Source of the DNA: Squalus acanthias
Lineage: Eukaryota
DNA length: 64,000 bases
Assembly (NCBI GenBank): GCA_030390025.1
Contig: CM059432.1
Location: forward strand, 25,360,001 to 25,424,000
Reading direction: 5' to 3'
Part shown: one piece after another, positions 6,825 through 57,530 of the stretch
How positions within the stretch are numbered: the first letter of the stretch is position 1
How the letters are laid out: every line of letters begins with the position of its first letter
The notes under the pieces: model-generated
Database searches by the model: none
Told to the model about the DNA's origin: nothing
Seen by the model: only the letters and a program-made list of their open reading frames with translations
Translations under genes and position numbers: made by a program

Positions 6825-7564
6825 GGCCCAAAAATTAGTCTTAGTACACGAGAGTACGCACTGTGTACTCTCGCGTATTCTGTCTCCAATTGCCGGTTTA
6901 CTGCATGCACTGCGCATGCGCTGAAAACCGGCACTTGGTGAACTCAAAAGGGGGTGGTTCCTAGGTGAACCGCGTGCGCGCTACAGGCTGCGCGCACGCA
7001 GTGCACTTAGTGCTTTGAACGCGCAGGTAAGCATGGAAGATTTTGCACATAAAGAAAGGAGGCGTAAGACCCTCTTTTAACAAGGTAAGTAGTTAATTAA
7101 GTATTATTTTAAAAAATTTTCAACAGGTTTATCTTTTTTAGTGACTTTAAAGAAAGGTAAGTTTATTTTTATAACTTTTAAAAATATTTTAAATTTTTTC
7201 AAAAATTAAATTTTTTGTTTAAAGTGGTTAATTTATTTAACTATACTTATTTTATTAATGTGATGGTTTTTTTAAATTTAATTGAGGTTTAGCTGTTCTT
7301 TTGGGGGGGTATAGATTCATAGCTTTGACAGCCCTTGCTGTCAAAACTATGAATGAAAGATGGTGTGCTGCCATTGGCTCTAACTGAATCACGTGATCCA
7401 CAGCTCGCACGAATTAACTGCGTCTGTGGGATATGCACACACTGCACAGCTGCAGCCTTGAAACTAAAGTTCGTGTGAGCTCGGAAGGAAAAGGCAGGCG
7501 CGCAGTGAGATATCGCGGGGAAGCCTTACCCCCGCAGGAAGGCTCCGTCTTTAATTTCTGGGCC
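6825..7564. mobile_element. Harbinger-derived MITE, family C, copy 1
   Basis: TIRs GGCCCAAAAATT / AATTTCTGGGCC; TSD ATT; AT-rich core; homologous to 9687-10449 and 25898-26663. Confidence 0.93.
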
Positions 7565-9320: not shown

Positions 9321-9686
9321 CCTTAGGATTCTTAGCATAGGCTCTAGGAAAGCAAGATATTTTCATTACAGAAGAATAAGCCTTAAGGATATATTTTTGA
9401 CTGTTTTTAAAATGATAAACGGATTTGATTCTGTCCAGTGGACAAGTCTAACTGATGCATAAGTATGGAAGAATCAGAGGGCATGAGTGTAAAATATGTA
9501 GGGAAAGAGTTCGGTTACATGTTTAAAAATATTTCTTTTCACAGAGAATCATTGGTCTCGGGAACAAACTACCAAAACGTGCATCGAATGTGAATTTACT
9601 GCAGCCTCTCCAAAGGAAGATGAACAAGTTCCTGAGAGATGAAGACATTTCCAGTTATAGGGGGTAAGTCAACTGGGAATAATAAT

Positions 9687-10449
9687 GGCCCAGAAATTCG
9701 GCGCTTGTCGGATGAGTACGCGCTGTGTACTCACCCGTAAAGCCACTTGAAGTGCCGGTTTCCTGCATGCACTGCGCATGCGTGGGAAACCGGAACTTCC
9801 GGTCTCGTGAAGGGAGGGGTTCAGAGGTGAACCGCGCGCGCGGGAGAGGCTGCGCGCATGCAGCGAACTTTGGGTTTTTTTCAGGTTTCTCCGGGAAGGT
9901 AAGTATGGAAGAAGCTGCGCTTCTAAAAAGGAGGCGCAAGACCCGTTTTTAACAAGGTAAGTGGTTAATTAATTACAATTTAAAACATTTTTCAACAGGT
10001 TTATCTTTTTTAGATACTTTAAAGAAAGGTAAGTTTATTTTTAGCATCATTAAAATGTATTTTAATTTTTCAAAAATTAAAATTTTTGTTTAAAGTATTA
10101 AATTTATTTAACTTATAGTTATTTTAAAAATGTGATGTTTTTTAAAACATTTATTTGAAGTTTAGGTGTTGTTTTGGGGCTGATTTCAATTCATAGATTT
10201 GACAGGTCTTCCTGTCAAATCTATGAATGAAAATGCCCTGCTAGGATTGGCTCTCTATGGCCCACGTGATCCCAGGGGACGCTTCGAACTAACTGCGCCC
10301 CTGGGACACGCAAGCACTGCGCGCCGGCAGCTGCAGGAGGCCCAGGACCCGAAGTTCTCGTGGGCCCAAAACACAACGACAGGCGCGGTAGGTAAGTACG
10401 CATGCGATGCTTGCACCCGCAGGAAGCCGGAAAACCGAATTTCTGGCCC
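9687..10449. mobile_element. Harbinger-derived MITE, family C, copy 2
   Basis: TIRs GGCCCAGAAATT / AATTTCTGGCCC; TSD imperfect (AAT/AAA). Confidence 0.92.
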
Positions 10450-10499
10450 AAAATTTATGAGTTACAGCCCTCTCTTGCGGCTCTGCTTGATTTCCTTAG

Positions 10500-10760
10500 G
10501 GTTTCAGCGAAGCACTTTTTCACGCAAAGAATAGTGGAAATCTGGAACTCACTCCCTCAAAAGGCTGCGGATGCTGGTCAATTGAAATTTTCAAGACTGA
10601 GATCGATAGATTTTTGTTAGGTATGTGTGTTATGGGGTATGGAACAAGGGTGGGTGGAGGGTAAATGGAGTTGAGGTACAGATCAGCTATGATCTAACTG
10701 AATGACGGAACAGGTTCGAGGAGTTGAATGGCCTGCTCCTGTTCCTATGTTTCTATATTT
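10500..10760 (+). mobile_element. CR1 3' fragment
   Basis: 'KHFFTQRIVEIWNSLPQKA' plus gatcagc…gaatggcct…cctatgtttctat tail. Confidence 0.85.
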
Positions 10761-11094: not shown

Positions 11095-11512
11095 ACACGG
11101 TGGCATAGTGGTTAGCACTGGTGCCTCACAGCGCCAGAGACCCGGGTTCGAATCTGACCTCGGGTGACTGTCTGTGTGGAGTTTGCACATTCTCCCCGTG
11201 TCTGTGTGGGTTTCCTCCGGGTGCTCCGGTTTCCTCCCACAGTCCAAAAAAATGTGTGGGTTAGGTTGATTTGGCTATGATAAATTGACCCTTAGTGTTA
11301 GGGGGGATTAAATATGTGGGGTTATGGGGATAGGATGGGATATGTTAGGGGAATTACATACACGGGGGTAGGGTGGGATATGTGTACTGTGGGGATTAAA
11401 GCAGGGACAGGGTACTGGATTTGGATGATCAGCCATGATCGTATTGAATGGCGGAGCAGGCTCGATGGGCCGAATGGCCTACTCCTGCTCCTAGATTCTA
11501 TGTTTCTATGTT
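11095..11512 (+). mobile_element. HE1-type SINE (V-SINE superfamily)
   Basis: A box (tggcatagtgg), B box (ggttcgaatc), V-domain core (tgtgtggagtttgcacattctccccgtgtctg…gggtttcctccgggtgctccggtttcctccc) and CR1/HER1-derived tail; possible TSD tgttaca. Confidence 0.9.
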
Positions 11513-11514
11513 AC

Positions 11515-12725
11515 ACCTGTGCTCCTTCAAACCTTGTGCTTTTCCTCAGTGGTACAAAGGTGCGGTGTGGCTGGCTGGCTGGTGCGCTAGTCCAGGTGCC
11601 TTTTTGAACTCTGGTGGTGCTCATCTTAGGGCAACCGAATCTTAGCTCCTGGCTGCATCTCCTGTACTGCTGCCAGTCTTACCTATTTCTGCTCTTCCCT
11701 GCCCTGCCTTCTACTTATGCAGGTATCTGAAGAGGCGTGTGACAGGCACTATCCTGAAAGGCAGCATCATCCTGGGAGCACAAATCTGACAGTCACTGGC
11801 TCTGCATGGCCACTGATCTGTGGGAAAGCAAACCAAATGGTACCAATGAGACTGTTGAATCTCTGAAAGATACTTCTCTTTATTGCTGCCTCAATCATTT
11901 AGAGACCAGCAGAGATGGTCTGGTACCCATAGCCTCTATTGTCAGAGCCTCTTTTGCAGCTTGGCCTGCCCTCGGGACCTCTATGATTTGGACTTTTGCT
12001 GCAGATTGGCCTGGAGCCAATCCAGGGTTGACTGCTGTGCTGCACACACATCCATCATGTTGCTGCCAATCCGGGTAGTGGACTCCAACTAATGTGCCAT
12101 CTGCTCTGTGTTCTTGGACACCATCCCTACTGCCTGTACGTATGTTCCATGCTCTGATAGCATCCTTTTTAAAAACTGGAGACCTGAGATCTGGCTTCTG
12201 GGACTCATCAGCTGCGGGCTAAAGTCTCCTGATCTTCCAACCAATGGCATCTGCCTCCTCATATTGCACTCCTAGCTCCCCCTGCACACTCCTGCTCTAT
12301 GCATGACCCTGTGCACTGCTCTCTGACTGACTAACTAATGCTGGTCCAGGGAGGGTGTCTGTAGGCTTGTGCTTCAGAGGAAGAAAGTGACTGGCTGCAT
12401 GTGAAGAAGTGCTGGCAAGGCCTGAAACAGAGAGTCCAGGTTTCTCTTCCTGCTCCATCCCCAACATTTGCTTGTTTCTATGGCACACCCAGGAGAGAAC
12501 AAGGAGAAAGGTAAGTATGGGTAGCTGAGAAGTAGGGTTCTATTATACTTTCAGTACAAGGAATGATATGAGGATTTAATTATGTACTATATTTTGATGA
12601 AAGATTACACGAGTTACAGGAGCATAAAAGGGAAAAGAAGACGAATATTATGACTGACCTGCAGCTGGTATGTCCCCCTCTACTTCCCTATCTTCCACTT
12701 CTTCTCCTGTGCACTTTCCAGGAGT
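11515..12725 (-). pseudogene. Remnant of a Harbinger Myb-like accessory gene (end of exon 2, intron, last exon)
   Basis: Minus strand: gaagtagagggggacatacc…cag|gtcagt resembles the exon-2 end at ~50845-50885; polypyrimidine acceptor ~12490-12510; C-terminus 'GCPK…PLRKSTR' resembles 'PRG*PPK…PRRST' at 52480-52590. Confidence 0.55.
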
Positions 12726-17500: not shown

Positions 17501-17598
17501 TCAGTGGAAGCAAAGGATCCCGTGGCACTCTCCAAAGAGGAGCAGAGATTCTTTCAGTGTCCTGGTTAACATTTAGCCCACAACTTCTAAAACAGATT

Positions 17599-17953
17599 GG
17601 GGTAGAAATGAGTGCACGTTGCACCTGTTTTTCAGGTGTAAAAGGGCAGGCGTTAGGCCCCTTTCATATGTTCATTCGGGGCCTAACGCCTGGCTAAGGA
17701 CTCTGCTGGGTAATTTGTTTTTGATGAGCAGAACAGATGCCAAGCCTGCCCCATTCACCATTCTTCAGCGGCCGCTGCAACCGCCAATGAAAGGTAAGTT
17801 TTTTTTTAAATAAAATTTTAATCTTGTGCATATAATGTTGATGAAGTCCGAGGTTGAGTTTTGGGCCAGCCACAGGCCTCTCAGTTGGGGTGAGTGTTTC
17901 CATCCCAACGCCGAGTATAGGCCCAAACACAGGCCCAGACAAACTCCCACCCC
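17599..17953. mobile_element. Harbinger-type MITE, family E
   Basis: GGGGTAGAAAT…ACTCCCACCCC; TSD ATT/ATC; gttgcacctgtttttcaggtg shared with 43114-43370. Confidence 0.75.
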
Positions 17954-23964: not shown

Positions 23965-25235
23965 AAGAAGAAAGAAAGAATTTGTATTTATATAGCACCT
24001 TTCACAACCTCAGGATGTCCCAAAAGGACTCACGACCAATGAAGTATTTTGAAGTGTGGTCACTGTTGCAATGTAGGGAAATGTGGCAGACAATTTGCAT
24101 GCACTGGGGGTGATTTTGCCAACGGGGAGCTTTTGGAGGCGGGACTCCCACTTGTCGGGTTTCAGTCCCGCCTCCAACAACTTCTGGCCAACCCAAGCTA
24201 TTTTCCCTTGATTGACCTTGTTAAGCCTACCCAGCGGGCTTAGTAGGCCAATTAAGGGAAAGCCGGTTGCAGAGAACGTCAACGTATGACGTTTCATCTG
24301 TCAAAAATTTTTGACAGATGAATTGTCATCATTTGACTGCATTCTCTGTAGTTTGATGAGGTCTTGAATTCAAGACCTCATCAAACATCTTTCTTTTGCA
24401 GAAATGAGATGGTTGTTACATTGGAGAATGCAACGGGCATCTGTCATCTCCAACGCGGAGGTGCGAGACTCTCCGCATACACACCGACTGAAGCCTGCAG
24501 GAAGAATCAAAGGTAAGTACACTTTTTCTAACACTTTGCACTTACCTCAGATACTCACCTCTCCACACTTGCACCCATCACTTACCATCACAGCACACTT
24601 TTGCAGCCCTCTGACCCCTGCAGACCCACTACTCGCCTCGCTGACCTGGCGGGTTTCGGGGCCTTCGGGAAGCCCGCACTTGTGAGGGCAAAAAGGGGAT
24701 AATCCTATTTTCTGCCTGTTAACTTCCTGTTAACAGGCAGTTAATAGGTTTAAATCCCTTCCCGCCTCCAAGGAGACAGGACCCAGCGCGGGACGGCTAC
24801 TCGCCTCCTGGGAAGATGACATGGAGGCGGGTTGGGGGCAGGTTGGGCACCCGCCCCCAAATTCTGCCATTTTCCCGGCAGTCCCACCTTCATAACTGCC
24901 TCCCCAGGGCTGGCAAGATCGCGCCCATGGTCCCAGAAACAGCAATGAGATAATTAACAGATCACTTTTTTTTGCAGATGATGGTTGAGGGATAAATGTT
25001 GGCCAGGGCACCACAAGAACCTTTTGCTCTTTATCAATTGGTGCCATGGGATCTTTTACATCCACCTGAGAGAGTAAGTAAGACCTCAATTTAGCATCTC
25101 ATCAGAAAGACAGCACCTCCAACAGTACTGTACTGAATTGTTAGCCTAGATTGTGTGTACAAGTTTCTGGAAAGGGGTTTGATCCTACCACCTTCTGACT
25201 CAGAGGCAAAAATGCTATCACTGAGTCAAGATTGA
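23965..25235 (-). mobile_element. Deu-SINE (SacSINE1-like) split by a MITE
   Basis: Tail 23965-24105; body and head 24927-25235. Confidence 0.85.
24106..24926. mobile_element. Harbinger-type MITE, family F
   Basis: TIRs GGGGGTGATTTTGCC / GGCAAGATCGCGCCC; GGAGGCGGG/CCCGCCTCC subterminal repeats; interrupts a SINE. Confidence 0.85.
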
Positions 25236-25504: not shown

Positions 25505-26860
25505 CAAAACAGAAAATACAAGTTATGCGAAACCTTTATAAATCATTGGTAAGGCCTCAGCTGGAGTATTGTGTCTCATTCTGAGCGCCACACTTTAGGA
25601 AGAATGACAAGGCCTTGGAGAGGGTGCAGAGGAGATTTACCAGAATGATATCAGGGATGAGGGACTTCAGTTATGTGGAGCGACGAGAGAAGCTGGGATT
25701 GTTCTCCTTGGGGCAAAGAATTTTAAAGGGAGATTTAATAGAGGTGTTAAAAATTATGAAGGGTTTTGATAGAGTAAATAAAAGAAAGTGTTTCCACTGG
25801 GGGGTGAGTCAATAATCAGAGGACACAGATTTAAGATCATTGGCAAAAGAACCAGAGGGAAAATGAGGAGATTTTTTTCACGCAGCGAGTTGTCATGGGC
25901 CCAGAAATTCGCCTCTCCGGCTTGCCGCGGGGGTAAGGATCGCGCGCGCACTTACCTACCGCGCCTGCCGTTGTGTTTTGGGCCAACGGGAACTTCAGCT
26001 CCTGGTCCTGCTCCAAGAGCCGGCGCGCAGTGCTTGCGTGTCCCAGGGGCGTAGTTAGTGCGATGCATCCCCTGGGATCACGTGGGCCATGGAGAGCCAA
26101 TGGCAGCAGACCATCTTTCATTCATAGATTTGACAGGAGACCTGTCAAATCTGTGAATTGAAATCGGCCCCAAAAGAACAGCTAAACTTAAAATAAATTT
26201 TTTAAAAAACCATCACATTTATAAAATAACTATAGTTAAAATAAATTAACCACTTTAAACAAAAATTAAAAAAATTTTAAAAGTTAAAATACTTTTTAAA
26301 AGTGATAAAAATAAACTTACCTTTCTTTAAAGTATCTAAAAAAGATAAACCTGTTGAAAATTTTTTTAAATTATACTTAATTAACCACTTACCTTGTTGA
26401 AAACGGGTCCTGCGCCTCCTTTTTAATAGTGTAGTTTCTTCACTACTTACCCTCGCGTAGAAACCTGAAAAAAAATCTAAGTTTGCTGCGTGCGCGCAGC
26501 CTCTACCGTGCACGCGGTTCACCTAGGAACCGCCCCCTTCGCCATACCGGAAGTTCCGGTTTCCCGCGCATGCGCAGTGCATGCAGGAAACCGGCACTTC
26601 GGGACGCATTACGGGTGAGTACGGACTGTGTACTCACCCGGGAAGGGCCGAATTTTTGGCCCCACGATCTGGAATGCACTGCTTGAAAGGACGGTGAAAA
26701 TAGTAACTTTCAAAAGGGTATTGGATATATAACTGAAAGGAAAAATTTGCAGAGCTATGGGGAAAGTGCAGGGGAGTGGGATTAATTGGATAGCTCTTTT
26801 AAAGAGCTGACACAGGCACGATGGGCCGAATGGCCTCCTTCTGTGCTGTAACATTCGATG
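25505..26860 (+). mobile_element. CR1 3' fragment split by a family C MITE
   Basis: 'ERVQRRFTRMI…', 'RGHRFKIIG'; resumes atctggaatgcactgc at 26667; tail gggccgaatggcctccttctgtgctgtaa. Confidence 0.9.
25898..26663. mobile_element. Harbinger-derived MITE, family C, copy 3 (inverted)
   Basis: GGCCCAGAAATT…AATTTTTGGCCCC; TSD ATG/ACG. Confidence 0.92.
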
Positions 26861-37435: not shown

Positions 37436-39035
37436 GAGTGGAATTTTAATCCCCAAAAATGGGTGGGTTTGTGTCGGGTGGGATGTTAACATTTTTAAAA
37501 TCTCAAACCCAAACCCAACTTCCAGTTTTAATGGAAGCGGGATGGGGGAGCGGGTGGGGGGGCAGGTGGGAGGGCGGGTGAGGAGTCGGGTGAGGAGTCG
37601 GGTGAGGAGTCGGGTGAGGAGTCGGGTGAGGGGTCGGGTGAGGGGGCGGGTGAGGGGTCGGGTGAGGGGGCGGGTGAGGGGTCGAGTGAGGGGGCGGGTG
37701 AGGGGTCGGGTGAGGGGTCGGGTGAGGGGTCGGGTGAGGGGGGCGGGTGAGGGGGTGGGTGAGGGGTCGGGTGAGGGGTCGGGTGAGGGGTCGGGTGAGG
37801 GGGCGGGTGAGGGGGTGGGTGAGGGGGTCGGGTGAGGGGTTGGGTGAGGGGGCGGGTGGAGGGGTAGGGGGGGCGGGTGTGGAGTCGGGTAAGGGGTCGG
37901 GTGAGGGGTCGGGTGAGGGGTGGGTGAGGGGTCGGGTGAGTGGTCGGGTGGAGGGGTGGGTAGAGGGGCGGGTGGAGGGACGGGTGGAGGGGCGGGTGGA
38001 GGGGCGGGTGGGGGGGGCGGGTGAGGAGTCAGGTGAGGGGTCGAGTGAGGGGCGGGTGTGGACTCAGGTGAGGGGTCGGGTGAGGGGCCGGGTGAGGGGT
38101 GGGTGAGGGGTGGGTGAGGGGGCGGGTGGAGGGGTGGGTGGGGGGGTCGGGTGTGGAGTCGGGTGAGGGGCCGGGTGAGGGGTGGGTGAGGGGTGGGTGA
38201 GGGGTCGGGTGAGTGGTCGGGTGGAGGGGGGGTGGGGGGGCAGGTGTGGACTCAGGTGAGGGGTCGGGTGAGGGGCCGGGTGAGGGGTGGGTGAGGGGTG
38301 GGTGAGGGGGGGGGGGTGGAGGGGTGGGTGGGGGGTCGAGTGAGGGGGCGTGTGGGGGTTGGGTGAGGGTCGAGTGAGGGGGCGTGTGGGGGTTGGGTGA
38401 GGGTCGAGTGAGGGGGCGTGTGGGGGTTGGGTGAGGGGTCGGGTGGAGGGGGAGCGGGTGGGGGGCGGGTCAGGGCGCGGGTGAGGGGACGGTTGGGGGG
38501 GCGGGTGAGGGGTCGGGTGGGGGTCGAGTGGGGGGTCGGGTGAGGGGGCGGGTGAGGGGGCGGGTGGGAGTCAAGTAGGGGTTCGGGTGAGGGGTCATGT
38601 GAGGGGCGGCTTGGGGGGCAGGTGGGGGGTCAGGGGGCAGGGCAGGCATCCAACCCACTCCCAGAAGGCGGCTTGACCACTTAAATATTATAATGAAGCT
38701 GCGCATCTCAGATTTTATCTTTCTTCCAGGTTTAACCCTGGCCAGCTGGCTCGGGAAACCCGTCAGCTAAAGGGAGGCGAGGACTGCTGCGTGGAACAGG
38801 TAAGTACTTTTCCAGCACTGTTTGTGGGCCAGAATGAGCAGGAGTGCTTCCCCTCCGGCCCACCAAGTTAACCTGCTTCCCTCCCCACGATCAGACCCCT
38901 CCCCGCGATCACCGACTCCCCTCCCACCAATCACGGGCCCCCAACCCCCACCCCAACGATCGGATACCCCCTGCGAGCACCGATCTGAACTCCTCCCACA
39001 CGCTTGGAAATCCTGCCCCAGCAAAAATCAGGGCC
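37436..39035. mobile_element. Harbinger-type MITE, family D, expanded by an internal minisatellite
   Basis: GAGTGGAATTTT…AAAATCAGGGCC; TSD ATA/GTA; sequence on both sides of the array is colinear with 9051-9320. Confidence 0.78.
37545..38640. repeat. G-rich 12-bp minisatellite (GGGTGAGGGGTC)n
   Basis: About 90 imperfect units; most regular at the left end. Confidence 0.97.
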
Positions 39036-39139
39036 GTACTTTCTAAATGGTACATGTAGATATCCTCCATCCTCTGTCACAGCCACAACTCCATTTCCCA
39101 TCATTTTCTGCTGGGAATTCTTGAGCAAGGCATTGGATT

Positions 39140-41232: not shown

Positions 41233-42281
41233 ATTTTTTAAACCCATTTACTATTTGGCTATGCTTAGTGTGCAGTGGAAACCTTCCTTCTCTATGCCCA
41301 CACATGTGAACTTCCCAGCAGGCGTCTCTGGACATTGATCAGGAGCAGAAAGTCTGGCTGAATATTTTTCCCTATCTCTAGTCTAGTTGTAGCACCCTGA
41401 TTGCCACCCAGGCTGAGGTCATGGGCTAAACTTGCTACCAGCACTCGTCACTGAGAAGGTTGGTTGTCACATGCGACAGACAGCTTATCGGGCGCACAGA
41501 TATCAACAGATGGAAAATCGTGAACAGAAACACCAGCGATTTTTCCTGGTAAGCCGCACTCTGGACAAGGCCTGACATTGGAATGGGCTCCTGGGAAATT
41601 GAGCACAAACCAGTGAATCAAACCTGGCGCACTTTCATCCTTACAGCACAGTTCACACGACAGAATCCGTTTCCAAACCGAGCTAGCAGGAGAGCTTAGC
41701 ACAAAGCAACGGCTCTTTCAATTCAAAGACTTCTTACCATTTTGAGGACTTACACACACACACGTTTGCAGCAAAAAGGCGTCAAACAAGCTTGCAATTT
41801 TTTTCCGCCGAGTCAGGTCATGCTGTGACTGAAGATGTATTTGGTGATTTAGTACCTTCCTCTAATTACACAGGGTGACTGGTTGCAGATGGACCCTTTT
41901 GCTGTCACACTAATCTTCATTGTTATAACAGCCTTGTCTGTTATGGAGCATGCTGTGTGTTGCACTTGACTGTCCCCTACTCATTGTATGATAACACACT
42001 GGGCACAACATTCCTCTGTTCATGTTTCTTTGTTTAAAAAAAAGTAGTTGTGAGCAAAGAGTAATGGAATGTGGGGGGAAAGAGCCAGAGGTTAAAGCGC
42101 CTGTGTTGCGCACAGGTCTGAGCATGCCTATTCCTTGAAAACAGGAGCAAAAAACATTAGATAAAAGGCCATTCCTGTGTAACGGTTGTCATGGTGCTTT
42201 ACTCCTCTTCATCCTCCTCAACCTCTCCACATTTTTGGTAACTGTACCCCCCTCCATTGCATCTTCTCTGTGATCTACCTT

Positions 42282-42951
42282 GGTACATCGGCGAGACCAT
42301 GCAGACACTGAGACAACGTATGAACGAGCACCGCGCAACAATCGCCAGGCAGGATTGTTACCTCCCAGTCGGGGAACACTTCAGCAGTCAAGGACATTCA
42401 GCCTCGGATCTGCGGGTAAGCGTTCTCCAAGGCGGCCTTAGGAAAACACGACAACGCAAAATCATCGAGCAGAAACTGATAGCCAAGTTCCGCACTCATA
42501 AAGACGGTCTCAATCGGGATCTTGGGTTTATGTCACGATACATGACGTGATCCGGACTCGAGTCGTCGTTGGCTTGTTCACAGATGTGATTCCCAGTAAA
42601 AAAGTAAAAATTTTAAAGTTAATCGTTTTACATACAGACGGCAGCTTTTGACACGTTAGACCCCATGCGATTCCACCTCATTGTCTCAGTTGTATCTTGC
42701 AATGTCTTTGATGTGGTACCTTCCTGGCTGACCTGATTAACTTTATCACACCTCGGCAGATAAACAGTCAGGATGATTGAATTCAGTTGTCTGCAATTGT
42801 AAGTTACACATGCATTGTTCTCTATCTATATATGCTTTGACGATTCTGTATCTCCTCACTTCACCCGACGAAGGAGTTGTAACTCCGAAAGCTTGTGATT
42901 TAAAATAAAACTGTTGGACTATAACCTGGTGTTGTGCGACCTCTCAATTTT
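42282..42951 (+). mobile_element. Penelope-like element 3' fragment, GIY-YIG endonuclease C-terminus
   Basis: 'WYIGETMQTLRQRMNEH…EQKLI…GLNRD'; 9-bp TSD ATCTACCTT (42273-42281, 42952-42960). Confidence 0.93.
42861..42898 (+). ncRNA. Minimal hammerhead ribozyme motif with a core substitution
   Basis: TCAC-CCGACGA-A-GGAGTtgtaACTCC-GAAA-GCTT-GTGA (CUGA changed to CCGA). Confidence 0.7.
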
Positions 42952-43113
42952 ATCTACCTTTGTGGCATTGCTCTCTCATGGTTTAATTCTTACCTGTTCT
43001 TGTGCATCCAATACATCTCCTTTCATTGCCCATAAAGTCACCTCCAGTGTCCCCCGTGACTCCATCCTTGATATTCTACTTAGTCTCATTCATAGGCTGC
43101 CACTTGGTGACAG

Positions 43114-43370
43114 TGGGGTCTGAATTCCACATAGTTGCACCTGTTTTTCAGGTGAAGCGGGCACAACAATAATAAATTTAGCAGTGCGACAGCCCATAGC
43201 TGAGTTGCGCGTGTGTGAGGCCATTGCTAAATTCATCCTGAGATATTAATAAGTGGCCTTGACAGGCGCCAGTAAAGAACAAAGCATTGATTGAAATATT
43301 AAAATGAAGGTTCTGTGCCTGAATAAGAACCCCTTTGCTAAATTTGTATGTGGAAGCTCCTGTTTCGCTA
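43114..43370. mobile_element. Truncated Harbinger-type MITE (family E-like)
   Basis: GGGGTCTGAATT…gttgcacctgtttttcaggtg; followed by a Deu-SINE tail at 43380-43480. Confidence 0.6.
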
Positions 43371-43536
43371 AATTTTACATTGCTACATTTCCTACATTAC
43401 TGCACTTCACAAGTACTTCATTGACTGTAAAGCACTTTGGGGTTCCCCGAGATCGTGAAAGACACTATATAAATGCAAGTTAATCTTAACCACAAGATCA
43501 TTGCAGTCGGGAAGCATGCTGTGGAAGTACTATTTA

Positions 43537-44518
43537 AAGGGATCAGTGGTGGGGCCTCAGCTATTTACAATTTATATTAATGACCTAGATGAAGGGACTG
43601 AGTGTAATGTATCCAAGTTTGCTGATGATACAAAGCTTGGTGGGACAGTAAGCTGTGAGGAGAACACAAGAGTCTGCAAAGGGCTATAGATAGACTAAGT
43701 GAGTGGGCAGTAAGGTGGCAGATGGAGTATAATGTAGGTAAATGTGAGGTTATTCACTTTGGTAGGAAGAATAGAAAAACAGAATATTTTTTAAATGGTG
43801 AGAAACGTTCAAATGTTGCTGTTCAGAGAGATTTAGGTGACCTCGTGCAAGAAACACAGAAAGCTAGCATGCAGGTACAGCAAGCAATAAGGAAGGCAAA
43901 TGGCATGTTGGCCTTTATTGCAAGGGGGTTGGAGTATAAGAGTAAGGAAGTCTTGCTACAATTGTACAGGGCCTTGATGAGACCACACCTGGAGTACTGT
44001 GCACAGTTCTGGTCTCATTTAAGGAAGGATATACTTGCCTTGGAGGCTGTGCAGCAAAGGTTCACTAGATTGATTCCTGGGATGAGAGGGCTGTCCTATG
44101 ATGAGAGATTGTGTAGAATGGGCCTATACTCTCTGGAGTTTAGAAGAATGAGAGGTGATCTCATTGAAACATACAAGATTCTGAAAGGTATTGACAGGGT
44201 AGATGCTGAGAGGTTGTTTCCCCTGGCTGGAGTGTCTAGAACTAGGGGGCATAGTCTCAGGATAAGGGGTGGGCCATTTAAGACTGAGATGAGGAGGAAT
44301 CTTTGGAATTCTCTGCCCCAGAGGGCTGTGAATGCTGAGTCTTTGAGTATATTCAAGGCTGAGATAGATAGATTTTTGGACTCTAGGGGAATCAAGGGAT
44401 ACGGAGATCGGGCGGGAAAGTGGAGTTGAGGTCGATGATCAGTCAATGATCCTATTGAATGGCGGAGCAGGCTCGATGGGCCGTATGGCCTACTCCTGCT
44501 CTTACTTCTTATGTTCTT
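43537..44518 (+). mobile_element. CR1 RT 3' fragment
   Basis: 'GSVVGPQLF…KFADDTK'; ORF 43722-44429; canonical tail. Confidence 0.95.
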
Positions 44519-44689
44519 CACCTCAATTAAGGTAAGTCTCTGCTTGGATCCAATAGGCTACCGGAGAATTTTTTTGATTTTTGATGGTATTTGTGGCTAC
44601 TGTTTTGTGGAGATGAACTCGGAGAGTGATTTTTGGGAGGTCTTGCACCCTGTCAAAGGATTGCTGTTCCGCTGGTGTTCTGTTTGGCC

Positions 44690-45700
44690 TGCCCATGGGG
44701 CTGCGACATGGGGGGGTGGGGGGCAGGGACGGCTGAAGCAGCAACAGGGAAGGCAGCAGGGGACTGCACAGGCTGCTAGAAGAGGGCGAATGGGGGAACG
44801 GCGAAGGAGGCCTTACACCATGATCGTGTACAGGAACCAGATTTCCTACCTCACCTTCACAGAGGCAGTTGCGGTTCTCTAGGGTGGCAGTGACTGAGCT
44901 CTGCCACCTGCTGAACCAAGATTTGCAGCCCAGCACAAGGCCATAGGAGTAGGCTCGAAGGGCCAAATGGCCTACTCCTGCTCCTATTTCTTATGTTCTT
45001 ATATTCTTATCCACAGCACCGCCTGTGGCTGTGAAGGTCACTGTGGCCCTGAACTTTTATTCATCGGGCTTCTTCCAATGTTCGGCAGGTGACATCATAA
45101 CATCTCCCAGTTTGCTGTGCACACTGCAATCAAGAACGTCACAGATTCACTATTTTCTGGGCACCAGGAATTCATCATCTTACCAATGGAGGCTGCCAAG
45201 CAGGACGAGAGCGTGGTGGGCTTTGCAAGAGTTGCTGGATTTGCTCAGGTACGGGGGTCATCGACTGCACCCACGTGGCCCTGTATGCTCCCGTACAAGA
45301 TCAAGCCCTCGACTACAACAGCAAGTGGTTCCATTCCTTAAATGTGCAAGTCCTTTGTGACCATAGGCATTGAGTTATGTGGGTCTGTGCCGGGTATCCT
45401 GTCAGTAATCATGATGTCTTCATCCTGCGCCAGTCCTCAATATCCCCTCTCTTCCACCAAGACTGCCAGGTTTAAGATGGTTACTTGGGGACTGGAAACC
45501 TGACAGGAACCTGTTGCATTTGACCCAACTTCAACTTGAAAAGAGGGCAAGTTTGGAGCCGCAAGAGGAGGAAGAATTTGAGGAGAACTAGGAAGAAGGG
45601 TAAGAGGAGGCTGAGACTGTTAAAGAAGAGCAAGGCCCAGCAGTACTGCCAGTTGCCAGACCTCTCAAGCAGCAGCTCATTAATGAGAGATTCTCATGAA
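44690..45700 (+). pseudogene. Harbinger transposase pseudogene (second element)
   Basis: 'RRRPY…VYRNQISYL', 'AVKVTVALNFYSSGFFQ', 'GVIDCTHVA', 'WLLGD' and an acidic tail; frameshifts and deletions. A 64-bp CR1 tail is inserted at 44947-45010 (TSD CCAYAG). Confidence 0.88.
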
Positions 45701-45970
45701 TGTTCCCTCCCCTCCCCAATGCACCAACAGTCATTCCATCCAGCTAAACCAGTCCTCACAACTACCATCTGAGTGCCCTCATGTAGTCCAGCTTCATGGG
45801 TGTTGCCCTTACATGACTAAGCACATCAAGACCTATAGCAATCCAAGAAAAAACGTTTACTATGCCAAGATATCTCATCACTCTTCATTTGACAATTGCT
45901 TATACTGAATATAGAGAACTAAAAATTATGTGAAGACCTAGTGCTTGTCTTCTGTGCTCGCTTAACTATT

Positions 45971-48145: not shown

Positions 48146-49077
48146 GAAAGCCAAGAGCTTGTTGTGTTCGGATTGATCAGTTCAAAATCAAAATCCATCA
48201 GCTAATTTTAACCAGTTTCTTTCCCATATGATTTTTTTCACTCTTTTGAAGGCATTAGGTCATGAGGTGATACAATTCTGTGTGCACTGGCCATCTTCTA
48301 ATATCCTAGCCAAGTAAGTATTCTTCATTTGTGAACCTCGACACTGAGTGTGGTTGGCATCTTCAACCATGGGGATCACAGTTATGCCCTATGCTGTCTG
48401 CAGCTAATACCCACACACGTGCATTTTCCAGCAGGAATTACTAGATAATAATCAGGTACAAAACATCTAGCTGATATTTTTCCTCTCGCTCACCAACGGT
48501 AGGGGTGATGTAATTGGCCTTTGTGTCCAAGGGCTCTGCTGCTCTCCTGCCTGAGGTCTGCTATCTGGGTTTGGAGAGGGAACATTTTGCTTTGCTTCTT
48601 ACCCACAAGAGATAAATTTGCTCAGTTATAGTGATATAAATGAGATTTATATTGACATTTTTCATTTTTGAAGGATTACATTTTTTGAAGTAAACCGGAT
48701 ACATTTGATGAATTATTTTTAGCCTTTCGGAGACACGGGTTAACCAAATATTTTAGCAAAATGATTAATCCCTAAAAAAAACTATTTGTAACGTAGCCTG
48801 TAGCTGAGTGATAATAGGATTAAATTCCTTTCATCATTTGTTGTTGGGTCTCAGACTGGCTATGTATTGTCAAGTCTAATATTGTCACTAGTCCTCTTTG
48901 ATGTACATGCCTCCAGGCCAACTCATGAGATTATAGGAAAAGTTGTTCACTGAATACAAAAGCATAAGGCCAGCTAAATGAAGGCTACCATTGTGACCTC
49001 CAACTAAAGTTTGGTTGGATGCAACTCAGTTCCTGGTGGACATGGGCCTACAGCACAAAACTGTCTCCAGTTTGGCA

Positions 49078-49222
49078 TTAGAATCATAGAATCTTACAGC
49101 ACAGAAGGAGGCCATTTGGCCCATTGTGCCTGTGCCGGCTCTTTGAAAGAGCTATCCAATTAGCCCCATTCCCCTGCTCTTTCCCTCAAGCCCTATAAAT
49201 GCTTCCTTTTCAAGTATATATC
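49078..49222 (-). mobile_element. CR1 3' tail
   Basis: agaatcatagaatcttacagcacagaaggaggccatt…. Confidence 0.85.
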
Positions 49223-49555: not shown

Positions 49556-49846
49556 TGATAACCAGAGGCCATAGATTTAAAATCATTGGCAAAAGATCTA
49601 GAGGGGAGAAGAGAAGACATTTTTTTCACTGAGAGTTGTCGGAATCTGGAACACTCTATCTGCAAAGGTGTGGAAGCTGATTCTATAAATAATTTTAAAA
49701 GGGAGTTGGACAGGTACTTGAGGATGAGGAACTTACAGGATTACCGAGAAAAAGCAGGGGTGTGGGACTAAGCACGACTGCTCTTTCAAAGAGCCAGCAC
49801 AGGCACGACATGCCAAATGGTCTCCATCTGTGCTGTAAGTTTCTAT
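49556..49846 (+). mobile_element. CR1 3' fragment (target of the Harbinger insertion)
   Basis: accagaggccatagattt…ctgtgctgtaagtttctat. Confidence 0.85.
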
Positions 49847-50010
49847 GGCCTGAAATTTCCTTACCTTGGCGGGCCCAGTGCAGGCGGTCGCCATGTTGGG
49901 TCCCGACCACGTTGCCACCTCCATCCCGCTCCACAGAATGGCTTTCCGATAATGGGGCCTGTTAAGCCGCCCTGCACGTTGCCTGGCCCAATTAAATGGA
50001 GCTGGTCTGG

Positions 50011-50056
50011 TGACGTCATCGATGATGCGTTTTCAGCCAGTATATTTAAAGGGACC
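50011..50056 (+). promoter_or_regulatory. Putative promoter of the Myb-like gene (TGACGTCA + TATTTAAAGGG)
   Basis: CRE palindrome at 50011-50018 and TATA-like element at 50043-50050, ~90 bp upstream of ATG 50138. Confidence 0.5.
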
Positions 50057-50137
50057 ATGGCCACATTGCATCTGAAGGTTCGCCTAGGATAGTGCAGTCA
50101 GTGCAATTGGTTTCCACTGCTGCACACAGGGGCACAA

Positions 50138-52593
50138 ATGACTGCACAGAGGCAGAGGGCTGCACCCTGGTTCTCCGATGACTCCCTCCACATGTTTGTG
50201 GAGGGAGTCAGAGCACGCAGGGCGGTCCTCTTCCCACCTGATGGGTGGAAGAGACCTCCCCAGCAAACCAAAGGAGCCTAGCTCCAGATAGCTGAGGAGG
50301 TGAACAGCAGGGACGTCGTGAGGGGCACCTGGGTGCAGTGCCGCAAACGCTACAACGATCTTGTGAGATAAGGAAAGGTGAGTCCAAAGCTACACTCACC
50401 TTCATCCTGCTGTGCCTCTCATCACATCCCCATCACTCTGCCTTCCCAACCCTACTCCTGCACATCCTTACTCACACCAACTTACCTTGTACCTCCACCC
50501 ATCCCTCTTTCTCTATCTACATTATCACATCCCCATCTTACTAGCCACCACTCACACTCAGCCTCTTCCTAATGCAATCATACCAACTAACAACATACAA
50601 GGAGGCCACTTGGAATTGCCACTCCACTCCATCATAGTCACCCTCTACACATGTAATCCATCCATTCCTTACACTCATTCCATCACGCTGACTCAACCTT
50701 CTCTTCTTTCCCTCCTTGCAGGAAAAGAGAGCCCACAATAAGAGGGAGAGGGAGAGAACTGGTGGAGGACCACCAGCACTCGTAACCCTGACCACTGCAG
50801 AGGAGGCTGCGTTCGAGCTCTAGGGAGTGTCCGAGCACCCAGAAGTGGGAGACGTAGAGAGGGGGACATCTCAGCAACCTGGTGACAGAATCACTTTTCA
50901 CACAGCTACATGGCATACATCAGTCACTCATATGGGGGCTGATGTCAGCAGCCACTGAATGATAATTATGTGTATAATGTTATCTGTGGACAATGTACAT
51001 ATGACATATGTAACTCATCTTTTTACACTCCCACTGGTCCATCAATAGCCCCCCCCCCCCACTCCCCCGCCACTGTCCAGGAGGAAGCCAAAGACAACTC
51101 TTCAGAGGAGCGTCACCTGACATAAGCCAACCCAGCACCAGTGCAGATATGCACACCTCAGTGGGTCCCTTGCGACATAGAGTAGTTGTGTCTCACAAAT
51201 CACAAGTGAGCAAGAGCAGATGGTGGAGAAAGGGACCGCAGTGGAGACTCCTCGTTGGAGGGCACAGGACTTTCCTAGCTCTACTCAGCTGCATACAGAC
51301 ACTGAGCCTCAGGGGCCATCCAGAAAGAGGGTGATCCTGGAGCTGCAGGAATAAGTGCAGGAGGCTCTGAAAGGTTTTGCGAGCGTGATGACTGTCACTG
51401 TTCAGAGAATGGAGGAGTCCTTCTCCAAAATGAGCACCACCATGTTGCAGGCAATGGCGACTGTAGAGTCCTCCATGGATAAGATGGCCACCTACATGGA
51501 GCAGCTAATGCGCCACTCACAGGAGCACATGGTATCTATGCAGAATAGATGGCTATCTATGGAAGATAGCTGGCTATCTATGGAGAATAGATCCCAGAGG
51601 CTCACAGACGTCCTCTCTAGGAGGGATGTCAGTGTAAACGTGAGCCCTCATGCACTGGAGAGGTACCACCAACGCTGCCTCCGCAAGATCCTGCAAATGC
51701 ATTGGCAGGATAGGTGCACCAACGTCAGTGTTCTTGCTCAGGCCAACATCCCCAGCATCGAAGCTTTGACCACGCTCGATCAGCTCCGATGGACGGGTCA
51801 CATTGTCCGCATGCCCGATACGAGACTCCCAAAACAAGCGCTCTACTCGGAGCTCCGGCACGGCAAGAGAGCCCCAGGTGGGCAGAGGAAACGCTTCAAG
51901 GACACCCTCAAAGCCTCCTTGAAAAAGTGTAACATCCCCAAAGACACCTGGGAATCCCTGGCCCAAGACCGCACAAAGTGGAGGAGAAGCATCCGGGAAG
52001 GCGCCGAACACCTCGAGTCTCTTCGCCGGGAGCAAGCGGAAGCCAAGCGCAGGCAGCGCAAGGAGCGCACGTCAACCCAAGCACCCCACCCACCCGCCCC
52101 TTCAACCACCGTCTGCCCCACCTGTGACAGAGACTCTAGGTCCCGCATTGGACTCATCAGTCACCTGCGAACTCATTTTTACTGTGGAAGCAAGTCATCC
52201 TCAGTTCTGAGGGACTGCCTAAGAAGGGTCCTCATGATCCCACTGAAGTGCAGCAAGGTGCTCTCCAGCTCTTTGTTAGCAGGAAAGTGCAAGTAGCCCA
52301 TGTGAGGGATGATGGCGAGAGGGGACATGCAAATCCTCTCCAAGCGCTCACATTTCCCCCCTCTTGCCAACCCCTCAGTCAGAGCTCCAGATGCTTCCTT
52401 GGACAGCTATGGCCAAGTCTGTCCCTGCACAGTTGCAGAAGGAGCAGAGACTTTGGCGAGGCCCTCACAGGCTCCAAAACCCAGAGGATGACCGCCAAAA
52501 GTGTCTAAGAAGGTGCAGCAGGGAAGTGAGGAGATTGCCTCTACCTCTGCTGAAGCCACAGAGGTAGCACCACGTAGAAGCACGTGTAAATGA
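50138..52593 (+). pseudogene. Harbinger Myb/SANT-like DNA-binding protein gene (MSANTD/NAIF1-like), 3 exons, inactivated
   Basis: Exon 1 (50138-50377) 'RAAPWFSDDSL…A*LQIAEEVN…TWVQCRKRYNDL' with donor GTGAGT; exon 2 from 50722 'EKRAHNKRERERTGGGPP'; stops at 50279, 50369, 50821; RTE insertion in the last exon. Confidence 0.9.
51653..52227 (+). mobile_element. RTE-clade LINE 3' fragment
   Basis: 'QLRWTGHIVRMPDTRLPKQALYSEL…GGQRKRFKD…CPTC…HLRTH'; tail …gggactgcctaagaag; TSD GYCCTCATG (51644-51652, 52228-52236). Confidence 0.93.
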
Positions 52594-52698
52594 AAGATGC
52601 CACACAAGTAGAATCACAAGGGTAGTCACTTGGGTGTTTGGTTCAATGTTATTGTGAAGTTTCCGCTAATTTAATCTTTACCATAAATATATTTATTT

Positions 52699-54138
52699 TC
52701 AAAACTTGGACAAATTTTTGTGCACAATGGGAAGTGGCTTAGTTAGTTGGAGTGAAGGGTCAGACCTAACTTTACCTCCAGCATTGATGGTCAGTGTGAA
52801 AGGAATGGATTGGTCATTGTAGGGATGCTTTATGGTATTGGTGTGGGGTGTTGCCAACTTGGCAGCCATATAGGTGTACTGCGTAAAGTTAAGTAAATCT
52901 GGCCATGATGAGGCCATCCCTGACCTCCCGGGCAGCAATGTGCTTGCGTACTGGTGCCCTCTGCACCATAGATTCAGCCAGCTCTTCCTGCTCCTCGTCT
53001 TCCACCTGATGCCCCACCTCCTCCTCCTACTCCTCCTCTGAAGAGGCTGTGTGCTCGTGCCTTGTTCCTCATGCAGCTTTAATCCCCGCTGCTGCACTAT
53101 GTTGTGCAGGGCACAGCAGACCACGATGATTCTGGATACCCTGTCTGCTGGGTACTGAAGGGCTCCTCCAGATCTGTCAAGGCATCTGAAGCACATTTTG
53201 AGCATGCCTATTGTCTGCTCTATGACACATCTGGTGGAAATGTGGCTTTCATTATATCTCTCCTCGGCCTCAGTACTTGGCGTCCTCAAGGGTGTCATGA
53301 GCCATGTCTTCAGTGGATAGCCCTTGTCTCCAAGCAGCCAGCTGGAAAGTGAGTTTGGAGGTGCGAAGTTCTGAGGGAGGGGGGACTGGCGCAGGGTGAA
53401 AGAGTCATGACAGCTGCCAGGGAAGTTGACACACACATGCCTGATGATCTTCCTATGGTTGCAGACCAGCTGCACATTGAAGGAGTGAAAGCCCTTGCGG
53501 TTGACAAAGACTCCTGGGTTATAATGGGGTGACCTGATGGCTACATGTGTGCAGTCGATGATGCCCTGCACTCGTGGGAAGCCAACCAGAGCGGAAAAGC
53601 CGAGTGCCCACTCAGTAACACTGGCTTCATCTGTGGCAAAGTTGATATAATTGGCTGACTTGTCAAACAGGGCATCAGTGACCTGTGTGATGCATCTGTG
53701 GGCGGCCGACTGCCAGATGCCACAAATGTCTGCTGCAGATCCCTGGAAGGCGCCTGAGGCAAAGAAGTTGAGGGCAATGGTGACTTTGACAGCCACTGGT
53801 AAGGCTTGTCCACCCGCTCCTCTGGGCTGCAGGTCTTCCTCCAGCAAGCTGCAAATGTCTGCAACAACCTGACGCAATAGCCTGAGCCTCCTTTTGCACT
53901 GCTGCTCAGTCATGTTGAGGAAGCTCATCCTCTGCCTGTATACCCTGTGTTGGGGGTATCGCCTCCGGCATGCTGCAGCCCTGCGCTGATGCCCTCTGTC
54001 CTGTGCAGGATCAGGTGGTTGAGGAGAAGGTTGGTGATATTGTTGTTGGTGCTGCTGGTGTGCCTGGTGCTGCTGGTGTTGGGGCTGATCGTGGTCAGAT
54101 TCTGAGGACCAAGGTGAGACAGTATAAACAGTACCCAT
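52699..54138 (-). CDS. HARBI1-family DDE transposase; catalytic core open, acidic tail frameshifted
   Basis: [15 protein letters not shown] and IEQTIGMLK (D-D-E), plus NRKGFHS and CCALHN. The native tail 'EEE*EEE…[10 protein letters not shown]' (ends 52889) lies in another frame. TATAAAA on the minus strand at 54328-54334. Confidence 0.92.
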
Positions 54139-54682
54139 GCTGATGAAATAGATGGCAGGTGAAGTAGAGGTGACAGAAGCATTCTGTCAATGGTGAGAGA
54201 GGTTCTTCCAATGAGGTGACAATGGATGGAGACTTTGCTTGAAACACTTGCAGCCTGCAGGAAGCTCAATCTGTGTTGCAAATGCAGTGAGAAGCATGAG
54301 GAAAGTGATCAGCTGTCAGGTGGGAGCTTTTATAGTACATTTCATCCTGTCAACTAATCAGCTGGAACAATGGCCACTCATCTCCCACCTCAGGTTTACA
54401 GACCTGGTTCCCGAGCAGCGTGGTCCCTGTGGGAATCCAGTGAAATTGACACGGTCAGTTTAAAATCACTCTTAAGGGTCTGACAACAAGGTAATAATTG
54501 TTAAAATTGGGTCCCCCGCCCCTGCCGGTCGGGTCGGCTCCACAAAGACAGACACACCTATTGGAAAGGCTCGCTGTCAAAAAAAACAACTTTCCCACCC
54601 GACCCGCCACCAATCGGAAAAATTTGATTATATGCTGATCATAATCTCAGCTGGTTCTTCAAGATTGTTGGGAAGATTTTTA

Positions 54683-56061: not shown

Positions 56062-57530
56062 TTAAGAAAGCCTAAAAGAATGGACTTGAACCCGTGGATT
56101 ACTTTGTAACAGAGCAGAATTTGGTTAAAAGTATAAACAACAAAGGAAGCAAGACAGAACTGTTAAAAATGTTGCCAAAATCAGAGTGCATGGTGGTCTT
56201 TGCTTACTGTCCAGTATGTTGAAGAGAGAAAGTGTCACAGACTAACTGCTCGCTTGCTGTTTTCCTCAAGGACAAATCTTGTTCAAAACTTGCTGGACTC
56301 TCAAAGGACACTGACTGCTAACAAGGAGAGATAAACAAAGACAGCAACAGATAAGCAGAGAATAACAAAGACAGCCATCTACCGGTCTTTGGGAGCTGTG
56401 AGAAAACTGTTGTAATCATCAGTGTGTTCTACCCAGCAACAAACTTGGAAAAGAAGACATAAAAACAATGATTTCTAGGAGATCAGAAGAAGCAAACAAA
56501 GAAGAAGTTGCTGACGACTGTTTAACCCCTCATCTGCTGGAACAGACGAGCTGATCATTCTGAGTTTCGAGTTGAACTAACTGGATAAGGTTATATGGCA
56601 TCTTTATCTTAAAAGCTGTTGGGGGAAAAATTGGGTTGGTTTGTGCCTCTCGTTTGCGCCCCCGGGGGGTGCTAACGGGGCGCAAATACCCTCGTGCCCG
56701 GGCGCGGCACCACTAACGCCTCCCGCGAAATTCAGTGGGAGGTTAGCGGCGGTGGTAGTCGGTAGCACCCCGCGCCGCCGGCGATGATGTCATCGCCGTG
56801 CGCAACGCCCCGCTTGCTCCCCGGCCACAAACTTCCCTTGCGCCCTCTGACCTATCGCCACACGATATGTCCAACAGGATCAGGGGGCGGTTTGGCAGCG
56901 GCGGCAGGGCAAGTTAAAGGGCAGGTGTCGAGCGGCCATTTTTATTCTGGCCGACTGCCAGCACCTGCCCCCTTTCGCTTTTGTATGTGGAGTGCCAGCC
57001 GCGATCGCTCAGCCCGGCACTCCTCTTGCGTGCCGGGCTGATTTCACGGCACCCCATTTCCCAGTCGTCCGGCAGGGCCCTGGTGTGCGCAGTGCTAGGC
57101 CCCTCCCCTTTAATCAAGGGAAGAGGCCTGCAATGACGCGGCGCTACGTATCGCGAAATTCTGTAGTAGCGGCTCAAGCAGGAGATGGAACGTTTCCAGT
57201 AGCGCCCCAACTCCTGCTTGGGGCGCTACTACTGAATTTACGGCGGCGTGGGGCTAATTTTTTCAGGGGCGCTAAAATTAGCGCCCCGGCGATGTTTGCG
57301 CCCCAAAATGGCCACCACCCAATTTTTCCCCCGTTGTGACTTAATGTTTTCCTCAAGGACAAATCTTGTTCAACATACTGGACAGTAAGCAAAGACCACC
57401 ATGCACTCTGGTTTTGGCCAAATTTTTAACAGTTCTGTCTTCATTCCTTTGTTGTTTATACTTTTAACCAAATTCTGCTCTGTTACCAAGTAATCCACGG
57501 GTTCAAGTCCATTCTTTTAGGCTTTCTTAA
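56062..57530. repeat. 162-bp inverted duplication (56062-56223 / 57369-57530) plus 29-bp direct repeat (56258-56286 / 57345-57373), in LTR-like DNA
   Basis: Arms align with about 6 mismatches by eye; the direct repeat is exact. Confidence 0.9.
56621..57332. mobile_element. Harbinger-derived MITE, family B, copy 2
   Basis: Perfect TIRs GGGGGAAAAATTGGGT / ACCCAATTTTTCCCCC; TSD GTT. Confidence 0.94.

Follow-up and report, generated by a model that had tools for sequence, protein, structure and literature searches.

PIF/Harbinger elements are defined by TIRs, a 3-bp TSD and a two-gene autonomous partner (PMC9179366, PMC4482050, PMC2836001). Their non-autonomous forms and the Tourist-like MITEs, such as mPing and zebrafish Harbinger3N_DR, are characterized by short TIRs starting with G, a 3-bp TSD, non-coding sequence and a high copy number (PMC2836001, PMC9179366, PMC4482050). 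Binding to the transposon ends is described for the Myb-like protein of Harbinger elements (PMC2836001, PMC9392472). In bats, the Helitron HelibatN3 carries the promoter, first exon and splice donor of NUBPL; it is a rolling-circle element that captured a piece of a host gene and has one donor, and its chimeric transcripts were demonstrated (PMC4778049). Maize Ds1/Ds elements (hAT) are non-autonomous cut-and-paste elements with several donors on one strand and acceptors; Ds1 has three donors and two acceptors, which lie within 35 bp of the ends and were shown to be used (PMC5432752), so that multiple donors in a non-autonomous DNA element have a precedent.

The element considered here is located at 9687-10449 of the window, the whole stretch of 64,000 nucleotides of Squalus acanthias DNA that was analyzed, and belongs with two relatives to a family designated Family C. 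It is like the Harbinger MITEs described above in its short TIRs, 3-bp TSD, non-coding sequence and high copy number, and an autonomous two-gene Harbinger with a similar TIR is present in the same genome. Unlike mPing and Harbinger3N_DR as described in these sources, Family C has internal, co-oriented strong donors, acceptors and candidate micro-exons. If active, it would resemble HelibatN3 as a non-autonomous DNA element that spreads a promoter and a donor, and it could splice to downstream host acceptors; it differs from HelibatN3 in being bounded by TIRs, in having several donors, in consisting of seemingly transposon-born sequence and in being known from sequence alone. Ds1 belongs to another superfamily, and in contrast to its terminal sites the conserved sites of Family C are internal, downstream of a CpG-rich promoter-like segment. 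No description of a donor cluster of this kind in vertebrate Harbinger MITEs was found in the literature searched, most subscription journals, Repbase and Dfam being outside the search.

Classification, ends and copy number

The three copies in the window and the ends of copy 2 were as follows.

9687..10449, + strand: Family C copy 2, 763 bp, non-coding, with local hairpins in a chain; contig depth limited to about 9683-10457
9687..9701, + strand: left TIR of copy 2, 15 bp, one mismatch to the right TIR within the first 14; AAT flank at 9684-9686
10435..10449, - strand: right TIR of copy 2; AAA flank at 10450-10452, the TSD AAT/AAA having one mismatch
6825..7564, + strand: Family C copy 1, which represents the second subfamily (71-74% identical with copies 2 and 3); TSD exact, ATT/ATT
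25897..26662, - strand (inverted): Family C copy 3, 86% identical with copy 2; its TSD is CAT/CAC

The copies, two on the + strand and one on the - strand, are 740-766 bp long, at the upper end of the usual length definitions for MITEs, and are not independent events. TIRs of 12-15 bp were present in all three; the 3-bp TSD was exact (ATT) in one copy and had one mismatch in the other two, and it was exact in four of the four copies checked of the neighboring families A and B. The TIR GGCCCAGAAATT matched the end GGCCTGAAATTT of the autonomous Harbinger at 49847 in 10 of 12 letters. The original prediction of a Harbinger-type non-autonomous element was thus upheld by the TIR, the 3-bp TSD and the likeness of the TIR to that of an autonomous Harbinger in the window. 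The TSDs ATT, AAT/AAA and CAT/CAC are not of the TWA or CWG form; ATT fits the ANT given for the Pangu group (PMC4482050), three copies being too few to place the subgroup.

A search of six frames yielded no ORF conserved across the three copies. Two element-derived peptides (74 and 78 aa) were sought within longer proteins as a sign of exonisation, and in this weak test 0 of 220 and 0 of 147 candidates scored. Contigs similar to Family C at 80% likeness numbered 853, 774, 867 and 965 in four public sequencing runs, and contig depth covered the element and fell to near zero beyond the TIRs, which identifies a high-copy family. By these features Family C is a shark PIF/Harbinger-type element, non-autonomous and present in high copy number.

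No Rfam match at the gathering threshold was obtained in the whole window. Pfam was run on 66 of the 106 stop-to-stop frames of at least 90 aa in the window and detected mobile-element domains only, namely LINE reverse transcriptase and endonuclease, a weak GIY-YIG and a DDE_Tnp_4 transposase, and no host exon. An exact 21-nt Family C pattern had no match in viral contigs, among which a transposase scan also confirmed none; its eight matches in metagenome contigs were rejected as chance, all eight being without further family sequence.

Donor motif

The four donors of copy 2 are listed below.

9897-9904, + strand: donor 1; family majority GG|GTAAGT; 14-nt spacer after T7CAG
9955..9962, + strand: donor 2, AG|GTAAGT, unchanged in all three copies
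10027-10034, + strand: donor 3, closing a candidate 30-nt or 15-nt micro-exon
10390..10397, + strand: donor 4, limited to one subfamily and absent from copy 1; it forms an arm of a weak subterminal hairpin in copy 3

Four co-oriented AG|GTAAGT sites had been predicted in the 763-bp element, and AGGTAAGT was found at 9897, 9955, 10027 and 10390 (211, 269, 341 and 704 bp from the left end), all on the + strand and with none on the - strand within 9687-10449. The equivalents expected in the other copies were also recovered: copy 1 has AGGTAAGC at 7025, AGGTAAGT at 7083 and 7155, and no fourth site, and inverted copy 3 has ACTTACC four times, corresponding to three AG|GTAAGT and one GG|GTAAGT. The description of the donors as four perfect sites holds for copy 2 but not for the family, in which copy 1 is without donor 4 and position 9897 is G rather than A in the majority (67-84% of the depth in four of four runs); a perfect donor 1 is therefore a trait of copy 2 or its sub-branch. 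In the family pattern one GG|GTAAGT accompanies three AG|GTAAGT; AG|GTAAGC is found in the copy-1 subfamily.

The expected excess over shuffled sequence was obtained, since none of 5000 dinucleotide shuffles of the element reached four AGGTAAGT (better-strand mean 0.017, maximum 2). In a look-elsewhere test limited to 8-mers of at least three letter types and at least two G/C, any 8-mer reached four occurrences in 2 of 2000 shuffles. A tandem-duplication origin of the donors was tried and rejected, 0 of 12 flank comparisons being significant. The letters common to the donor sites span -2 to +6 only and are variable beyond, and the splice consensus is likewise confined to about -2 to +6. Together with the polypyrimidine acceptors found upstream of donor 3 on the same strand, this limit makes the motif readable as a splice signal.

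Sixteen of the 18 AGGTAAGT in the window were inside Harbinger-type intervals (16.5 kb) and two were in the other 47.5 kb; with Family C excluded there were seven in 14.3 kb versus two in 47.5 kb (p 0.0008), the intervals having been drawn by hand, partly once the motif had been seen. The motif thus recurs in other Harbinger families of the window; the five copies of families A and B in the window have none. Three of the seven sites outside Family C (12509, 24540-24547 and 50480-50487) look like antisense CTTAC-rich intron sequence of Myb-type genes, an assignment shown for 50480-50487 only and made by resemblance for the other two, and some matches to the motif are accordingly unlikely to be donors.

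Acceptors, micro-exon and conservation

Acceptors on the same strand, framing micro-exons of 15 or 30 nt ahead of donor 3, had been overlooked in the original prediction.

9875..9904, + strand: acceptor-like T7CAG followed by donor 1; T7CAG in the copy 2/3 subfamily only
9989..10034, + strand: acceptors 9998 and 10013, candidate 30-nt/15-nt micro-exon and donor 3; the two longest invariant runs
10035..10182, + strand: AT-rich core resembling an intron; 10037-10182 contain T 73, A 48, G 19, C 6
10183..10234, no strand: central hairpin with 24-nt arms, 92%; holds TTTGACAG|G

The acceptors TTTTCAACAG (9998) and TTTATCTTTTTTAG (10013) precede donor 3 by 30 and 15 nt, and TTTATCTTTTTTAG is the only sense acceptor with at least 8 pyrimidines in 10, the rule applied, in all three copies. 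Donor 2 is separated from the acceptors by 42 or 57 nt, which is short for a vertebrate intron. The sense strand past donor 3 is T-rich with G over C, and AATAAA occurs three times antisense and not at all in sense in each of the three copies, a composition that fits intron-like sequence behind a promoter. A further candidate acceptor, TTTGACAG|G, is located 177 nt past donor 3.

In the three-copy alignment the longest invariant runs, of 25 and 28 nt, coincided with the acceptor and donor 3 region. The block 9947-10043 had 87 of 97 non-CpG columns invariant versus 360 of 550 elsewhere, a contrast reached in 0 of 5000 permutations, for which the 97-column window length was chosen by the analyst and the clustering of misaligned columns was ignored. 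Within the AT core, donors 2 and 3 and the two acceptors were invariant in 40 of 40 columns versus 148 of 200 other columns (p 3e-5), the acceptor letters having been picked post hoc with the alignment already seen. The non-signal letters within the block were kept in 47 of 59 cases versus 101 of 141 in the downstream AT core (p 0.29). In an unbiased test of all four donors, copy 3 kept 31 of 32 letters (p 0.07) and copy 1 kept 25 of 32 (p 0.33), neither being significant; with donor 4 dropped post hoc, copy 1 kept 23 of 24 letters of donors 1-3 although the subfamilies are 27% apart (p 0.005). A conservation focused on the splice signals is suggested by these comparisons.

Promoter-like segment and hairpins

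9709..9737, no strand: left subterminal hairpin; in the copy 2/3 subfamily both strands of its arms carry the donor-like word GG|GTGAGT
9753..9802, no strand: CpG-rich hairpin with TGCGCATGCG at 9773 and ACTTCCGG at 9795, copy 1 being without ACTTCCGG
10246..10268, no strand: ATTGG (CCAAT on the - strand) and CACGTG, kept in all three copies

The 212 bp ahead of donor 1 (9687-9898) have a GC content of 0.59 and a CpG o/e of 1.15, and with the motifs they contain they provide copy 2 with promoter-type sequence followed by a sense donor. The motifs named in the original prediction were all present: TGCGCATGCG at 9773, which we take to be an NRF1-type word, TTCCGG at 9797 (within ACTTCCGG at 9795), presumably an ETS-type word, and CACGTG at 10263, assumed to be an E-box. 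Because the NRF1-type and ETS-type words are arms of one hairpin, they may be promoter sites, transposition sites or both.

The DNA fold of copy 2 had a z of -10.6 versus 20 shuffles. Position 9712 in the left hairpin was G in more than 99% of the depth; in copy 1 this hairpin is kept, with its arms changed compensatorily and the GTGAGT word lost. The arms at 9709-9737 and 10189-10229 were judged by eye to have compensatory changes between the copy-1 and copy-2/3 subfamilies, which may reflect selection or template-switch repair.

Sequencing contigs over the element

Contigs from four public runs (of eight runs in two studies) were aligned to 9590-10510 at 80% likeness; the runs are RNA by guess only and may be DNA, and contigs drop rare forms, so that no weight was placed on them with regard to splicing. 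Among 40 of 203 variant rows listed, none fell in the GTAAGT hexamers, the acceptors, or the ETS-type, CCAAT or E-box words, which means that copy 2 carries the majority letters there and nothing more. The contig joints listed were 9718>9775 and 10207>10410, one contig each, with ends other than GT..AG and none at a donor, and no loose contig end lay at a donor among 24 of 328 listed (from runs that are possibly DNA). Unspliced contigs, among 32 of 3465 listed and again from runs that are possibly DNA, extended over donors 1-3 (9843-10043), over donor 4 (10330-10431) and across the stretch between donor 3 and the central hairpin (9999-10261).

Other Harbinger elements and a possible source of the donors

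49847..54640, - strand: autonomous-type Harbinger, near full-length; transposase frame 52699-54186 (-); terminal GGCCTGAAATTT at 49847; left end fuzzy
44519..45487, + strand: Harbinger transposase remnant H2; transposase part 44860-45487, tblastn E 5e-39
17598..17945, + strand: short H2-related element with a donor at 17792

The transposase frame at 52699-54186 is open for 495 codons, matches Pfam DDE_Tnp_4 with an E of 2.7e-37 and has shark proteins named putative nuclease HARBI1 as its closest relatives, at up to 76% identity. A convergent Myb/SANT-like gene, broken by stops, runs from about 50138 on the + strand; its exon matches the Myb_DNA-bind_5 part of P0043 (E 1e-6), and a true-looking donor at 50378 marks the end of Myb exon 1. 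No AG|GTAAGT was found in the transposase leader and left end (54640) of this element. A LINE 3' fragment is inserted in it at about 51640-52245. Its right end adjoins a LINE 3' tail repeat (49816-49847) like that at 49070-49125, and the element seems, from this junction, to have inserted into a LINE 3' tail.

H2 has a sense AG|GTAAGT at 44530, followed by T-rich sequence and about 165 nt upstream of a probable ATG at 44696 (start inferred). The surrounding region, 43113-45960, is a decayed Harbinger interrupted by a short interspersed repeat, by a CR1 fragment (43538-44518) just upstream of the H2 leader and, within the transposase, by a CR1 tail piece (44946-45007). AGGTAAGT had been predicted at 17792, 24511 and 38798 in MITEs described as unrelated; the sites are there, but the element at 17598 aligns with H2, with a z of 9.7 versus the presumed H2 left end and of 4.6 versus the H2 leader past the donor (0 of 300 shuffles each). 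From the H2 sense donor and the 17598 element, in at least one family the donor plausibly represents the first donor within the 5' leader of a transposase gene.

The connection of Family C itself to these elements was less clear. Among 30 comparisons, that with the H2 leader gave a z of 4.5 for copy 2 (0 of 150 shuffles, around the central hairpin) and of 1.6 for copy 1. Other high scores between Family C and Harbinger sequences were driven by AT-richness or by the motif itself, and a multiple alignment of Family C with the H2 leader was unconvincing. Against the ends of the 49847-54640 Harbinger, Family C gave no alignment (z at most 1.1), and an autonomous parent of Family C was not found within the 64-kb window.

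Origin of the splice signals

Judged on the letters, the splice signals of Family C look unusually well kept. We put at about even the chance that Family C has kept from an autonomous Harbinger parent its promoter and its spliced non-coding 5' leader. A deletion derivative would have kept the left two thirds, with the parent's promoter and multi-exon non-coding 5' leader, laid out as a CpG-rich promoter, a short first exon for which donors 1 and 2 are alternatives, a micro-exon closed by donor 3, and then a T-rich intron with the TTTGACAG acceptor joined to the short right end. Mobilization would take place in trans, by a transposase and a Myb-like protein recognizing the Family C ends. The donors would be real splice signals by origin; each copy, having inherited them, would be a potential promoter-plus-donor (first-exon) cassette, with host chimeric transcripts as a by-product. 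We infer the descent of the Family C interior from such a leader, its transcription and its splicing. Copies might also, as the original prediction proposes, serve as an array of landing sites for U1, with exon trapping, telescripting (suppression of premature polyadenylation) or nuclear retention as conceivable effects.

Counted in favor of the inherited leader are the TIR and TSD, the copy number, the motif excess, the same-strand acceptors and the H2 sense donor at 44530; against it stand the parent not found, the weak likeness to the H2 leader, the 54640 end without AG|GTAAGT, the short spacing from donor 2 to the acceptors and the three of seven motif sites outside Family C that are antisense-like. 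Inheritance from the parent's 5' leader had been named beforehand as an alternative, with neutral decay of the donors; the inheritance gained support from the 44530 donor ahead of a transposase remnant, but the decay did not, on three copies and a weak test. Idle signals should decay, yet these are kept, which points to separate derivation of the subfamilies from related parents or to selection past the loss of coding. If Family C is an inherited leader only, it would be an ordinary, abundant Harbinger derivative that pre-installs promoter-plus-donor cassettes, and might give rise to alternative first exons and, in shark annotation, to false gene models.

Donors close to a promoter stimulate transcription and prevent early polyadenylation. 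A less probable alternative to the inherited leader is selection in the non-autonomous lineage, in which master copies with a promoter and strong U1 sites were transcribed in the germline, lay in open chromatin and were mobilized more, the donors being a maintained or gained cis-function. Two colinear subfamilies only 71-74% alike keep every letter of donors 2 and 3 and the two acceptors and fewer of the letters in between, the best 97-column window was matched by none of the permutations, donor 4 and the T7CAG acceptor are in one subfamily only, as a gain would allow, and AATAAA is confined to the antisense strand; but there are three copies only, the acceptor letters were post hoc, the unbiased test was not significant for either copy, and families A and B spread without AGGTAAGT. 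Protection of reporters from HUSH did not come from splice sites or spliceosome assembly in one study, which leaves selection via HUSH evasion unsupported by that source (PMC8770142). In its wider form, which we advance tentatively and with a good deal of doubt, shark Harbinger MITE lineages would keep and gain strong U1 sites and a micro-exon behind a housekeeping-type promoter despite being non-coding, transcription and splicing would aid mobilization or tolerance, and thousands of copies would seed alternative first exons throughout shark genomes. Should selection in the non-coding lineage maintain the signals, RNA-processing signals would contribute to what makes a MITE succeed, a testable answer to why some MITE families outrun their parents.

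It is rather improbable that the motif is instead read on DNA, with GGT(A/G)AGT as the binding site of a Myb/SANT trihelix protein or a host factor and the U1 match a coincidence. GGTRAG words do occur in the subterminal hairpins at both ends of copies 2 and 3, and in the autonomous element CCTTACC adjoins the TIR on its inner side. For the Harbinger-derived factor MSANTD3 a short motif of this sort is said to exist, but the literature search found no paper to confirm it. A Myb-like protein is known to bind transposon ends (PMC2836001, PMC9392472), but the conserved donors 2 and 3 are internal (270-340 bp from the end), on one strand and paired with polypyrimidine-AG tracts, copy 1 kept the left hairpin and lost its GTGAGT word, and cartilaginous fishes are without MSANTD3 (PMC9392472).

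We find it very unlikely that, in the manner of Ds1, donors and acceptors allow the removal of copies from host pre-mRNA by splicing, or their exonisation, so that tolerated copies survive. A donor-like word some 26 nt in from the left end (copy 3 and the family majority) and, in copy 1, an acceptor-like word some 27 nt in from the right end recall the three donors and two acceptors of Ds1; these terminal words are weaker, however, and not common to all three copies, splicing would leave about 55 nt by the coordinates, which is no multiple of three, and the strong conserved donors of Family C are 210-340 bp inside, whereas the Ds1 sites are less than 35 bp from the termini (PMC5432752). Chance or a mechanical origin by tandem duplication, hairpin correction or base composition has hardly any probability left, for although palindromes with compensatory changes follow one another along the element and donor 4 lies within a weak one, the shuffles (0 of 5000), the look-elsewhere test (2 of 2000), the dissimilar donor flanks, donors 2 and 3 with no antisense partner in the element, and the recurrence of the motif in other Harbinger families all argue against it.

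Additional features of the window

In the TIR elements at 38700-38810 and 17620-17800, polypyrimidine-CAG|GT(T/G)T, 70-160 nt and AG|GTAAGT form a cassette-exon-like unit. The TIR element at 24107-24928 has at least five hairpins, one of them a perfect palindrome of 36 bp (24351-24386), and shares a TGACAG hairpin with Family C; downstream of its sense donor at 24511 come CACTTACC/ACTCACC repeats and an acceptor rich in T. A G-rich minisatellite of ~1.1 kb with GGGTGAGGGGTC-like units (37545-38635) has expanded within the TIR element 37437-39036. A weak GIY-YIG match at 42242-42550 (E 0.005, below the cut-off) is possibly a Penelope-type remnant. A coiled-coil-like frame at 11512-12530 (- strand), which resembles 51355-51700 and for which tblastn gave no confirmation, is a probable remnant of a Harbinger Myb-like gene. 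The region 56062-57530 is probably another young TIR element: its inverted arms of 162 bp are 96% complementary and separated by 1145 bp, within which a family B element (56621-57332) is nested.
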